A stretch of 5,156 nucleotides of DNA, from IMG/VR virus record IMGVR_UViG_2740892258_000011; one strand, given 5' to 3'. Origin of the DNA: a virus (taxonomy: Duplodnaviria > Heunggongvirae > Uroviricota > Caudoviricetes). A program made the position numbers and the translations under genes. The notes under the pieces were generated by a model, which was not told where the DNA came from, ran no database searches, and was given only the letters and a program-made list of their open reading frames with translations. This document shows positions 1 through 5,156 of the stretch, in pieces (within the stretch, counting starts at the first letter, position 1; every line of letters begins with the position of its first letter).

Positions 1-631
<631 letters not shown>

Positions 632-870
632 TTACCGCCGCGCCATTTCGCGGATTGCCACAACCGGAAGCGCACGGTCGACGAAAATTTAACGACAGGC
701 TATCTATGAACCAGCTACCTCGCCGTGCGCTTTCGCGTTATGGTCTGACTTTTCAGGGAAATATCCTTTCAGTAAACTGTCAGTGCCGGATGCTCACCCG
801 TGTCCGGCGCACGCACTCCACCTCACCCGTGGAGAACTCCTTAATTACCAACCTTAGCTTCGTTGGTTAG

Positions 871-1092
871 CTATTCACGCGGGTATGTAATCATTCTGGC
901 AATGCTTAATGCCGCTGCTTTTTCCAGATTGGTGATATCCTGCTCCAGAGCGGACAGATTTTCAGCCTGCTTAGCCCTGGCTTCATTGGCCCATTTCAAA
1001 TCCTGCGCTGCATTAATTTTCTGGCGCATCCACTCATAAAGTTCATCATTGGTATAGTCTGGCGCGATGATGACGGGTTCTCGTTTCTGCAT
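871..1092 (-). CDS. YdfC-like small prophage protein (73 aa), function unknown
   Basis: ORF-track protein MQKREPVIIAPDYTNDELYEWMRQKINAAQDLKWANEARAKQ..., with GAGGAA RBS 6-8 nt upstream of the ATG at 1090-1092. Size and position (third gene of leftward operon) resemble ydfC of the Qin dicB operon; homology is recalled, not searched. Confidence 0.6.
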   Translation of the reverse strand: MQKREPVIIAPDYTNDELYEWMRQKINAAQDLKWANEARAKQAENLSALEQDITNLEKAAALSIARMITYPRE

Positions 1093-1121
1093 ACTGATTC
1101 CTCGCGGTGCTGCTTCGCTTA

Positions 1122-1250
1122 TCAGCCGTTAGATTTTGCCGAGCTGGAAAGCGCCTGTTTAAACTCACTGAAGCTGAGAGCTTCTTCGCCTTCGGCAAGG
1201 CCTTCGAAGTATTCTTCGTAAGCCTTTTCCATGATTGTGTCGAAATCCAT
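1122..1250 (-). CDS. YdfB-like micro-protein (42 aa), acidic, function unknown
   Basis: Hand translation of the minus strand gives MDFDTIMEKAYEEYFEGLAEGEEALSFSEFKQALSSSAKSNG*. ATG at 1248-1250 preceded by AGGTGA; stop TGA at 1122-1124. Below the ORF-track length cutoff. Size and position match ydfB/ydaG-type genes. Confidence 0.55.
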   Translation of the reverse strand: MDFDTIMEKAYEEYFEGLAEGEEALSFSEFKQALSSSAKSNG

Positions 1251-1251
1251 A

Positions 1252-1407
1252 TCACTCACCTGAGTTTCTTTCCAGCCAGCGACGGGCACCATTTTCGGTT
1301 TTAAACGTTTTGCTTTTGGTATACGTCATCGCGGTGAACGTACCGTCCTGGTTGGGGAACACGCCACATACCAGAGATTCGCTGTTGCCAAGATCGATAG
1401 TATCCAT
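1252..1407 (-). CDS. YdfA/YdaF-like (DUF1391-type) small prophage protein, 51 aa
   Basis: MDTIDLGNSESLVCGVFPNQDGTFTAMTYTKSKTFKTENGARRWLERNSGE*, with GAGG RBS 6 nt upstream of the ATG at 1405-1407. The ORF track offers a longer form starting at 1488 (78 aa); the 51-aa form is preferred by family size. Stop lies 1 nt from the ydfB-like start. Confidence 0.6.
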   Translation of the reverse strand: MDTIDLGNSESLVCGVFPNQDGTFTAMTYTKSKTFKTENGARRWLERNSGE

Positions 1408-1586
1408 GCTGACCTCATTTCCCCTTAACGCCGGGGTAGCGGAACAAAAACCTGCTGCATAGTTATTAAAGTTGAACCCTGCCGTCATGTTCTTACGCCT
1501 CGGGCTGGCTACTTAACCCCTGACCACTGCCTGGTAACTAGAAGTATTGCCCTGCATTCTGTGGGGTGGGGAGAGGGAATGAATTA

Positions 1587-1615
1587 AGTTTAGAAAAATG
1601 AACTTTTCAGGTCAA
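1587..1615 (-). promoter_or_regulatory. PL-like sigma70 promoter for the leftward early operon
   Basis: On the minus strand: TTGACC (reverse complement of 1610-1615), 17-bp spacer, TAAACT (reverse complement of 1587-1592). Sits in the 290-bp gap between the CI-like stop and the ydfA-like gene, oriented toward ydfA/B/C. Confidence 0.5.
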
Positions 1616-1699
1616 TGTTTTTTTATCAAAACATTTTAAGCAGGCAGCTGTTAAGCCATCACCACGATGGCATACAGTTAATCAAATAGATGAGGTCGG

Positions 1700-2338
1700 T
1701 TAAATATTTTGTTGAATTTTAAAGCATACGCCCAATATGCAAGATAGATCATCCAGCATAATTGAAGGGTAGCGAGGATTCGTGGGGACTAAAAGAATAT
1801 CCGGCCCTTCTATCTCCAGTTTACGAATGACAGGTGTTGTGGTCCCTTTGGGTAAGGCAAGGACAATATTTCCTGGTTGTACGGTTCGATCGGGATCAAC
1901 AAAAACTGTTGAACCATTTGGGATGGAAACTCCCCCACCAGATGTTGACATACTGTCACTCTCTAGAACAACTGCAAAGGTATTGGCCGGGATTTCTCCG
2001 ACAAGCTGCACACAAGAGGTTATTGAGGAATTTTTCATATAATCACTCCAGCTTGCTGCCTGCTGAAGTGATAGTAGCGGAACCGTTTTTATCGGCGGTA
2101 AAGATAGATCAAGCGAATCACCTGTATTTAACTCTCCTCCATTAAGAAGCCAATTTTCGTTTACTTTCAATATTTTTGCCAGTGAACTTATGTAACGCGA
2201 GGACGGCGCTCCTCCACCGTTCATCCATTGACTTACGGAGCCTTTTGATGCGCCAGTGGCATTGACAAGGTCTTTGCCTTTCAGGTTTAGCGCATGCATA
2301 CGTTGGGTTATGCGTTCAGATATTGTTTGCTTGTTCAT
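1700..2338 (-). CDS. CI-like prophage repressor: N-terminal HTH plus C-terminal LexA/S24-type autopeptidase domain (212 aa)
   Basis: C-terminal half aligns by eye to lambda CI: SDSM vs GNSM (catalytic Ser), VDPDRTVQPGN vs VDPEQAVEPGD, RKL vs KKL (catalytic Lys), NPRYP vs NPQYP. N-terminus has an HTH-like segment (GASKGSVSQWMNG). Divergent from the cro-like gene. Confidence 0.85.
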   Translation of the reverse strand: MNKQTISERITQRMHALNLKGKDLVNATGASKGSVSQWMNGGGAPSSRYISSLAKILKVNENWLLNGGELNTGDSLDLSLPPIKTVPLLSLQQAASWSDYMKNSSITSCVQLVGEIPANTFAVVLESDSMSTSGGGVSIPNGSTVFVDPDRTVQPGNIVLALPKGTTTPVIRKLEIEGPDILLVPTNPRYPSIMLDDLSCILGVCFKIQQNI

Positions 2339-2956: not shown

Positions 2957-3247
2957 ATGAAACGACCTAAACGTCGCCGCTGGGTTAACGAGAAATACAC
3001 ACGCTGGGTGAAGACACAGCCGTGTGCGTGTTGTGGTAAGCCAGCCGACGATCCCCATCACCTGATTGGTCATGGTCAGGGCGGAATGGGGACAAAATCT
3101 CACGATATTTTCACGCTACCGCTGTGTCGGGAGCATCACAACGAGCTTCATGCGGATCCTCTGGCGTTCGAAGAAAAGCATGGTTCTCAGGTTGATTTAA
3201 TTTTTCGTTTTCTTGATCACGCCTTTGCAACTGGCGTGCTTGGGTAA
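2957..3247 (+). CDS. YbcO-like (DUF1364-type) zinc-binding putative nuclease, 96 aa
   Basis: MKRPKRRRWVNEKYTRWVKTQPCACCGKPADDPHHLIGHGQGGMGTKSHDIFTLPLCREHHNELH.... The pattern CxxC...H.IG.G.GGMGTKSHD...C..HH resembles DLP12 YbcO (HIRLTGLCGTGTKPPD...CSACHDE), which is the same length. Internal ATG chosen over the 2858 start because the N-terminal extension would overlap the upstream gene by 77 bp. Confidence 0.55.
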   Translation: MKRPKRRRWVNEKYTRWVKTQPCACCGKPADDPHHLIGHGQGGMGTKSHDIFTLPLCREHHNELHADPLAFEEKHGSQVDLIFRFLDHAFATGVLG

Positions 3248-4500: not shown

Positions 4501-4534
4501 CGTTTTATGCCTGACGTTAGAAGATTTTTTACAC

Positions 4535-4556
4535 CCCGCCGCCTGGCGGGTTTTTT
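4535..4556 (+). terminator. Rho-independent terminator (tR'-like) about 45-60 nt downstream of the PR' start
   Basis: Stem CCCGCC (4535-4540), loop GCCT, stem GGCGGG (4545-4550), then TTTTTT (4551-4556). Confidence 0.7.
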
Positions 4557-4901: not shown

Positions 4902-4932
4902 GGCTGGTGGGTGTTAGGGGCACCCACCAGCC
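4902..4932. repeat. Perfect 12-bp inverted repeat with 7-nt spacer (strong hairpin or palindromic protein-binding site)
   Basis: GGCTGGTGGGTG (4902-4913), ttagggg, CACCCACCAGCC (4921-4932); arms are exact reverse complements. No T-run follows, so not a canonical intrinsic terminator. Confidence 0.6.
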
Positions 4933-5024
4933 ATCTGCTCATGCGTCCGGATCACAAGCAAACCTCAGGCCCACTGCTTTGCGCAAAAGCAGAATGAGCC
5001 TATCAGAGACAGGCTTAATGATCC

Positions 5025-5156
5025 ATGCTTAATACTGTAAAAATATCCAGTTGTGAGTTAATCAACGCCGACTGCCTGGAATTTATCCGGTCGTTACCCG
5101 AAAATTCTGTTGACCTGATAGTCACGGACCCGCCGTACTTTAAAGTGAAGCCTGAG
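5025..5156 (+). CDS. DNA methyltransferase (N6-adenine/N4-cytosine class, DPPY motif), N-terminal 44 codons; truncated by window end
   Basis: MLNTVKISSCELINADCLEFIRSLPENSVDLIVTDPPYFKVKPE. The block SVDLIVTDPPY is the catalytic motif IV, closely resembling YhdJ/phage Dam-like enzymes (SVDLIFADPPY). Weak RBS. Confidence 0.7.
   Translation, partial: MLNTVKISSCELINADCLEFIRSLPENSVDLIVTDPPYFKVKPE

Follow-up and report, generated by a model that had tools for sequence, protein, structure and literature searches.

The closest described relative of the three-gene cassette in IMG/VR record IMGVR_UViG_2740892258_000011 is the gene set ydfA-ydfB-ydfC (b1571-b1573) in the dicBF operon of Qin, a cryptic prophage of Escherichia coli K-12. 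In Qin, ydfA, ydfB and ydfC stand behind a repressor gene and a leftward promoter. The repressor DicA has 135 amino acids (aa). It represses the promoter dicBp in K-12, and a ydfABC transcript from dicBp was detected by Northern blot (bioRxiv 10.1101/2023.04.14.536235). The record analyzed here is a stretch of Caudoviricetes DNA of 5,156 nucleotides (nt), and the whole of it is referred to as the window. Its cassette is almost certainly the ydfA-ydfB-ydfC of a lambdoid prophage of the Qin or "PPompW" type.

Other phages and prophages carry small genes at the same place. In lambda, N, Ral, CIII and Kil are likewise small proteins of the early leftward operon beside the immunity region. In the Rac prophage, YdaF is a DUF1391 paralogue of YdfA, about 86% identical, in the same early-left slot and with the same leader motif. 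Its partner YdaG (44 aa, with a weak UBA-like match) is encoded upstream of it. YdaF is followed by sieB and kilR and not by ydfB, ydfC and dicF.

After 35 years, ydfA, ydfB and ydfC still have no assigned function. The initial annotation of the window had said so, and the literature agrees (PMC5069750 and a 2026 preprint). The preprint terms YdfC a peptide without known function.

Identity and conservation of the cassette

The window contains three intact minus-strand open reading frames (ORFs) of 51, 42 and 73 aa, at the coordinates first annotated (Table 1). The products are 96% (YdfA), 100% (YdfB) and 99% (YdfC) identical to the K-12 Qin proteins, which bears out the earlier proposal that the cassette is equivalent to ydfABC. 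YdfC has one extra C-terminal residue compared with the Qin protein. The genes, their order and their position after a repressor and a leftward promoter are the same as in Qin. The spacings of 1 nt and 29 nt are also the same. All three proteins are 100% identical to those of the "PPompW" prophage of UTI89 and ATCC 11775. These genes are already named and known. In RefSeq, thousands of E. coli genomes carry this DNA under the names ydfA (DUF1391 family), ydfB and ydfC. Of 5426 complete E. coli genomes, 4573 match window positions 600-1700 at least partly, and 1428 contain at least 80% of this stretch. Many have more than one copy.

Profile searches gave the same assignment. YdfA matches PF07151 (DUF1391) with E 8.8e-28 and 96.2 bits, above the gathering cutoff of 27.3 bits. 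Residues 2-49 align with model positions 1-48. YdfB and YdfC match their family profiles over their full length, and each also matches the K-12 protein. All three proteins have matches in PHROG, to families of unknown function, with E values from 1e-27 to 1e-39. The families are phrog_751 (YdfA), phrog_2061 (YdfB; E 1.3e-27) and phrog_1744 (YdfC; E 4e-39). A literature search on DUF1391 returned nothing specific.

Table 1. Features in and around the ydfABC cassette of the window (pI, isoelectric point; SD, Shine-Dalgarno sequence; HTH, helix-turn-helix)
Feature	Coordinates	Strand	Length (aa)	Start...stop	pI	Remarks
CI/LexA-type repressor	1700..2338	-	212			HTH + S24 peptidase; PF00717 E 2e-13; upstream of the cassette, same orientation
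Putative sigma-70-type promoter	1587..1615	-				TTGACC-17-TAAACT; consensus scan, 9/12 matches; positional counterpart of dicBp (PL analogue)
Leader motif	1421..1445	-				GTTCCGC-N-CCCC-GGCGTTAA-GGGG; putative 4-bp hairpin with 8-nt loop, directly upstream of the ydfA SD
ydfA	1252..1407	-	51	ATG...TGA	5.2	Begins MDTIDLGNSES; DUF1391; first cistron of the early-left operon
ydfB	1122..1250	-	42	ATG...TGA	4.05	Begins MDFDTIMEKAYEEYFEGLAEGEE
ydfC	871..1092	-	73	ATG...TAG	5.1
Truncated 3' untranslated ydfC-dicF spacer	620..870	-				Ends at the cls deletion junction 620-625

The layout is compact, as the initial annotation described. One base separates the ydfA stop from the ydfB start (TGAtATG), and 29 nt separate ydfB from ydfC. 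Each ORF has its own putative ribosome-binding site. These are the SD-like GAGG at 1416-1413 (ydfA), AGGTGAG (ydfB) and GAGGA (ydfC). YdfB is strongly acidic, also as noted earlier, with 10 D and E residues, 3 K and R residues and a net charge of about -7.5. Its conserved core is KAYEEYFxxLAEGEEALSFSEF. None of the three sequences contains a hydrophobic or membrane-like segment.

The shortness of these ORFs is in itself no evidence, because short ORFs often arise by chance and the window contains 67 of at least 25 aa. The three ORFs stand above chance because of their family matches, their RefSeq names, their third-position bias and their ratios of nonsynonymous to synonymous substitution (dN/dS) below 1. 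The comparison set contained 182 related loci from genomes, phages and IMG/VR, and dN/dS was calculated pairwise by the Nei-Gojobori method over unique alleles. It was 0.14 for ydfA (42 alleles), 0.22 for ydfB (27 alleles) and 0.40 for ydfC (32 alleles). The benchmark dicB, which encodes a proven protein, gave 0.35 (33 alleles). Variable sites in ydfA, ydfB and ydfC are enriched at the third codon position. The junction TGAtATG between ydfA and ydfB occurs in 144 of 145 loci, and the gap of 29 nt between ydfB and ydfC occurs in 119 of 119. These patterns indicate that all three genes are conserved under purifying selection. It is very likely that all three ORFs are translated.

The cassette is also carried by the isolated temperate phages Tritos, Evi and PhiR42_1. 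The gene order in Tritos is cI, ydfA, ydfB, ydfC, dicF, dicB, ydfD, exo, xis, int. The ydfABC genes thus occur in active temperate phages, some of them resident beside Stx2a converting phages. Decayed cassettes were seen as well (P0001, P0352 and L022). They comprise an in-frame deletion fusion of YdfB and YdfC, a frameshift fusion of YdfA and YdfB, and a multiply frameshifted cassette in an E. coli chromosome.

Two annotation problems affect ydfA. Some loci carry YdfA calls of 77-86 aa with an upstream start (P0100-P0110 and others; in the window, ORF 1252-1488). We rejected these as artefacts because the extensions vary among loci except over the leader motif and SD. The apparently conserved PALRGNEV of the extensions is the translated leader motif and SD, not protein. 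In phage records ON470580, ON470583, ON470614 and others, ydfA/DUF1391 is labelled "head-DNA stabilization protein D". The sole basis found for this label is a non-significant phmmer match to gpD/SHP (E 0.32). It is probably a spreading annotation error.

The first-gene slot and its leader motif

The three genes are separable, independent modules. The most frequent combination in the 182-locus sample, which is biased toward loci containing ydfA and ydfC, was ydfABC with dicB (102 loci). It was followed by ydfA, ydfB and dicB (27 loci), ydfABC (20 loci), ydfC with dicB (17 loci), ydfA only (10 loci) and ydfA with dicB (4 loci). In mEp460, YdfA is followed by an acidic protein of about 125 aa. 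In Rac, the YdfA-type protein is preceded by YdaG. In prophages of Citrobacter and Cronobacter and in one metagenome prophage, YdfB takes the first place and DUF1391 is absent. A 29-aa version of YdfB, consisting of the core, was also found.

The invariant TGAtATG junction and the co-occurrence in the first sample had suggested that YdfB is an obligate partner of YdfA. This was rejected because YdfB leads without DUF1391 in the prophages just named. In Pantoea phage LIET2, DUF1391 is followed by an acidic 48-aa gene that was considered as a YdfB relative. The YdfB hidden Markov model did not match it.

The families differ in range. DUF1391 reaches phages of Serratia, Pantoea and Salicola. In a 75-kb Pantoea myovirus, the DUF1391 gene lies upstream of the portal gene and is surrounded by small genes of unknown function. 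YdfC was restricted to Escherichia in a word-indexed protein search, and overall to phages of Escherichia and Shigella. Distant YdfC relatives (27-40% identical) occupy the first position behind the repressor gene (cI) in two places, Shigella phage SfIV and IMG/VR contig L261.

The regulatory region of the window has the same plan as that of Qin with a different repressor. Qin has the 135-aa DicA, whereas the window repressor has 212 aa and is of the LexA/CI type. Its HTH_3 match (E 2.4e-4, 21.5 bits) is slightly below the 23-bit cutoff. RefSeq names it "LexA family protein". As in the dicBF operon, a sigma-70 promoter lies adjacent to the repressor gene, here by consensus match only. We infer that the promoter at 1615-1587 drives the cassette. 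The initial annotation had placed the genes at the N/kil position. This holds for their place, as they are the first cistrons after a leftward promoter beside a repressor, where lambda has N. It does not hold for the products, which have no likeness to N, Kil or KilR.

A leader motif lies at 1445-1421 on the minus strand, and its full sequence is 5'-GTTCCGCTACCCCGGCGTTAAGGGG-3'. The motif precedes at least 7 unrelated first genes in prophages of Escherichia, Citrobacter and Cronobacter, with flanks that differ on both sides. These first genes include ydfA, ydfB, ydaG, a YdfC-like gene, a KilR-YdaE fusion, a P22 gp17-family gene and several of unknown function. IMG/VR was scanned for GTTCCGC-N4-7-GGCGWTAA with the stem left free, which yielded 39 unique variants. 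The loop is closed by at least 3 contiguous pairs in 18 of the 39 variants, compared with 5% expected. Ten distinct stems were present, including CCCC/GGGG, GCC/GGC, GCCG/CGGC, CCGC/GCGG and GCCU/AGGC. A formal pair count found changes on both sides at all four stem pairs, in an alignment that was pre-selected for pairing. For this reason, 18 of 39 is the unbiased figure.

The motif has no Rfam match. The leader contains no lambda-type boxA/boxB nut site, and by inspection the boxA CGCTCTT(T)A is absent from 1408-1586. Neither the leader (z = +0.8) nor the 3' spacer (z = -1.3) is predicted to fold with unusual stability. At some positions, the loop resembles the RfaH ops element (GGCGGTAG), and we treat this as a lead only. 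A role of the motif similar to that of nut or put sites, in processing or in translation is possible.

The YdfA domain and possible roles of the products

The polyvalent proteins of the P1 DarA/DdrB and ArdC types are a further likeness. They are multidomain proteins that are delivered with invading DNA and counter host restriction (Iyer et al. 2017, PMC5512222). The DarA-N and DdrB-ParB domains are specific to phage-type polyvalent proteins (PMC5512222). The main text of that paper does not mention DUF1391. We searched 1.84 billion representative proteins with the DUF1391 profile and recovered 339 representatives. Most were of 45-110 aa, and about 15 of the best 150 were of 200-3348 aa. Pfam domain matches among the large proteins comprised DarA_N with DUF1391 in five proteins of 440-935 aa, and DarA_N, DUF1391 and ddrB-ParB in a 1572-aa cluster member (P0485). 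Two further proteins combined ArdC-N, DUF1391 and DUF3560.

The domain in these large proteins is bona fide DUF1391, with scores of 62-81 bits (cutoff as above). It shares the motifs GNNES, DGTFTA, SKTFKT and GA.RW with YdfA, residue for residue and in the order GNNES...DGTFTA...SKTFKT..GA.RW. The 867-aa DarA_N-DUF1391 protein P0433 is encoded in a gene row like the dar operons of phage P1 (L188/L189, JGI; a metagenomic contig of about 70 kb, genes at 10001-12604 and neighbours). The row contains genes for a DarA_N protein, P0433 itself, an InPase+DdrB-ParB protein (1267 aa) and an LPD29+helicase+methylase protein (>1570 aa). The ArdC-N-DUF1391-DUF3560 protein P0436 has SLT, integrase and methylase genes as neighbours. 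Recurrence with the hallmark domains of polyvalent proteins was found for YdfA only, and the YdfB and YdfC profiles had no match in those proteins.

By association and not by proof, this recurrence groups the YdfA domain with modules that work in the first moments of an invasion. Polyvalent proteins act at that stage, as does the early-left operon. They differ from YdfA in form. They have 440-1572 aa and several domains and are delivered with the DNA, whereas YdfA is the domain alone and is made after phage transcription. An early counter-defence or DNA-binding role for YdfA is possible, if somewhat doubtful. Early DNA protection would be the most likely role because the same domain is built into large proteins of phages, with DarA-N and beside DdrB-ParB and a helicase-methylase, and of integrative elements, with ArdC-N and DUF3560.

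The predicted shapes are simple. AlphaFold2 models YdfA with beta strands at residues 2-5, 11-18 and 24-30, packed on a C-terminal helix at 38-48 (predicted local distance difference test score [pLDDT] of 71.6). A Foldseek search of the YdfA model against BFVD found nothing with E below 0.2. By inspection of its sequence, YdfB may form two short amphipathic helices around an acidic turn. YdfC residues 1-14 are predicted to be disordered and are followed by one 55-residue helix at 15-69 (mean pLDDT, 87). The initial annotation had called YdfC helical or coiled-coil. The helix agrees with the model, and the coiled coil is merely suggestive because 144 of 2000 shuffles reach the heptad a/d occupancy of 0.73, which is not significant for the single sequence. 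The residues invariant in divergent YdfC homologues (K25, A28, L32, R39, L46, I53 and L56) have heptad spacing.

In the explanation that we prefer, the CI-like repressor is inactivated and transcription would start from the promoter at 1615-1587. The transcript would pass a leader of about 170 nt with the conserved hairpin motif. ydfA and ydfC would each be translated from their own SD. ydfB is probably translationally coupled to ydfA because its start lies 1 base after the ydfA stop. Coupling would thus keep YdfA and YdfB in a fixed ratio, and YdfC would be made separately. YdfA would be a free-standing beta-beta-beta-alpha domain of about 48 residues. It may bind DNA or else a host nuclease or restriction complex, and in this way protect phage DNA or help it to become established on entry or induction. 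YdfB, as an acidic helical microprotein, and YdfC, as a long and possibly coiled-coil helix, would be further effector modules of like kind.

The three products would thus be genuine, soluble, acidic small proteins encoded by repressor-controlled first cistrons. They would be exchangeable accessory modules of a hypervariable "first-gene slot", with YdfA acting in early DNA protection. They would be neither N-like regulators nor Kil-like division poisons. This explanation as a whole is plausible, and we stop short of calling it probable. A broader assignment to accessory conflict proteins is a reasonable guess.

Direct comparison gave no link to the lambda proteins. Lambda N is basic, whereas YdfA, YdfB and YdfC are acidic. 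They contain no arginine-rich stretch, and the leader has no nut site. None of the three has a Pfam match to Lambda_Kil (PF06301) or KilR (PF27398), and hhalign of YdfC against lambda Kil found nothing. YdfA aligned with Ral at an hhalign probability of 0.2%.

The initial annotation proposed that the products act in host takeover, in the manner of Kil, or in superinfection exclusion. The slot elsewhere holds the KilR-YdaE fusion and P22 gp17-family ("superinfection exclusion") genes. The downstream partners DicB and DicF are host-directed in intact prophages (PMC5069750, PMC6832061), and ASKA overexpression recovered ydfA, ydfB and ydfD among many hits for oxidant resistance (PMC8228696). Experiments in K-12 speak against both parts of this proposal. 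A Plac-driven operon that kept ydfABC and lacked dicF and dicB gave wild-type growth, viability and morphology (PMC5069750). Lambda Kil, in contrast, is toxic. Resistance to lambda-vir after operon induction depends mostly on dicB, as its deletion brings plating to nearly the control level, and plating on induced cells was normal for 7 of 9 phages (PMC6832061). Under the conditions of these experiments, the K-12 orthologues thus act neither like Kil nor as broad exclusion factors. The three proteins also differ from many exclusion proteins in having no membrane segment. PADLOC-DB contained no match to any of them at E up to 1, which counts against takeover or exclusion and also against counter-defence. 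We consider takeover or exclusion unlikely.

A CIII-like role in the lysis-lysogeny decision is more unlikely still. The products would modulate the decision by inhibiting FtsH and sparing a CII-like regulator of the YdaT type, and YdfC, which has a long amphipathic helix, would be the likeliest of them to do so. ydfABC occupy the operon position of cIII, and the rightward operon contains Cro-like and YdaT-like (CII-analogue) genes. YdfC is predicted to be one long helix. An hhalign comparison selects a 13-residue stretch at YdfC 15-27 against CIII 15-27 (xExLxExxxxKx), but its probability of 0.3% and E of 0.22 amount to no detectable homology. YdfC has no Pfam Lambda_CIII match. The modules are also dispensable and are missing from many similar prophages, which would be unusual for a core regulator. 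The least probable reading, and a very improbable one, is a role mainly at the RNA level. The ydfABC stretch would then be the 5' part of a DicF precursor or a regulatory leader, with incidental or weakly selected ORFs. The restricted range of YdfC and its weakest constraint would fit this, as would the frameshifted and fused copies that are common in cryptic prophages. It is opposed by dN/dS ratios that are below 1 for all three genes and comparable to or lower than that of dicB. DUF1391 and YdfB occur in phages and prophages without dicF, and DUF1391 is a domain of large proteins. The window ORFs are intact though dicF is deleted, which is a weak point because the deletion looks recent.

Several observations weigh against the preferred explanation itself. 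Domain co-occurrence is guilt by association. Because polyvalent proteins also include domains for DNA binding, for processing and for adaptor functions, DUF1391 may serve for binding in general and not as an effector. A minority of the family representatives are fusions, and these are all metagenomic. YdfB and YdfC are tied to counter-defence by position only. The searchable literature yielded no direct evidence for translation of ydfB. An NCBIfam search of the three proteins gave nothing meaningful, and a PDB sequence search gave nothing below E 0.3 for any of them. A tblastn search of plasmids with YdfA found 19 records, mostly chromosome-like or misassigned, and stand-alone DUF1391 is rare there. 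The same search did not support the idea that YdfA is a leading-region gene of conjugative plasmids.

The prophage remnant and the wider meaning of the slot

The cassette lies in a prophage remnant with two deletions. Window positions 1-625 contain yciU and the 3' end of cls and are 100% identical to B2-type strains. Positions 620-2895 are 99.8-99.9% identical to the prophage beside ompW in UTI89, ATCC 11775 and relatives. The identities overlap by a few bases at the junction 620-625, with cls identity up to 625 and prophage identity from 620. Relative to ATCC 11775, about 11.9 kb is missing there. In the UTI89 annotation, the removed genes are dicF, dicB, ydfD, exo, xis, int, ompW, yciABC, tonB, yciI and the 5' part of cls. 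In UTI89, dicF (76.7 bits) is found 87 nt past the left junction.

The window contains no match to DicF in Rfam at E up to 1, where the only hits overall were two sub-threshold chance hits. A tblastn search with DicB found nothing in the window. The locus is an incomplete dicBF operon, since these searches show that dicF and dicB are both missing. It differs from Qin in lacking dicF, dicB, ydfD and everything beyond. The initial annotation had ydfABC preceding dicF and dicB, which is correct for Qin and intact relatives. In the window, the cassette is stranded because the deletion of about 11.9 kb removed dicF, dicB and the genes beyond.

The second deletion lies near 2895. It joins the N-terminal part of a YdaT-like gene (ORF 2656-2934) to the C-terminal half of a DUF968 gene (2957-3247). 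About 5.9 kb is missing relative to UTI89, as estimated from the gene table, including replication genes and hokD. rusA and a Q antiterminator gene follow the DUF968 gene. The window is alone in having the two deletions compared with the "PPompW" prophage of UTI89 and ATCC 11775. Neither the deletion from cls to dicF nor that from the YdaT-like gene to DUF968 was found in any of the 5426 complete E. coli genomes. The cassette resides in a dead-end remnant without dicF, dicB, exo, xis and int.

The remaining spacer contains two adjacent predicted hairpins just downstream of ydfC. They lie on the minus strand at 834-816 (CUCCAC-GGGUGAG-GUGGAG) and 808-785 (GCCGGA-...GGGUGAG..-UCCGGC). Both have GGGUGAG in the loop. 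Just upstream is AAGGAG, a strong SD-like sequence that no obvious ORF follows. The hairpins may bear on how the ydfABC-dicF transcript is processed. In some genomes, RefSeq annotates a 54-aa "hypothetical protein" (WP_001331716.1) at about 708-872 on the plus strand, antisense to the ydfC-dicF spacer; this annotation is probably spurious.

Other features of the window lie apart from the cassette. yciU (1-340, minus strand) adjoins the junction and encodes a HI1450-family dsDNA-mimic protein in RefSeq; it is unrelated to the cassette. The start of a DNA methyltransferase-like gene with a DPPY motif lies at 5027-5156 on the plus strand, downstream of the Q antiterminator gene. Terminator-like hairpins lie upstream of it at about 4534-4556 and 4902-4935.

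For the window itself, the finding is unremarkable: a known cassette left behind in a prophage remnant with two deletions. A wider proposal can be framed for the family. YdfA could be the smallest, free-standing form of a counter-restriction or DNA-protecting module that phages and integrative elements also build into injected polyvalent proteins of the Dar and ArdC types. The first-gene slot of Rac-, Qin- and PPompW-type prophages could be a hotspot for exchangeable micro-proteins that act against defences or on the host, YdfB and YdfC included. The previously undescribed, covarying leader hairpin (GUUCCGC-N-stem-GGCGWUAA-stem) could mark the slot and perhaps control it, in a nut- or put-like or a translational manner. 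Taken jointly, these parts are speculative and rather unlikely to hold together. If the domain link is true, YdfA, with its 51 residues, would offer a way into a counter-defence or DNA-binding activity that is widespread, and the first-gene slot would be a place to mine for more small effectors.

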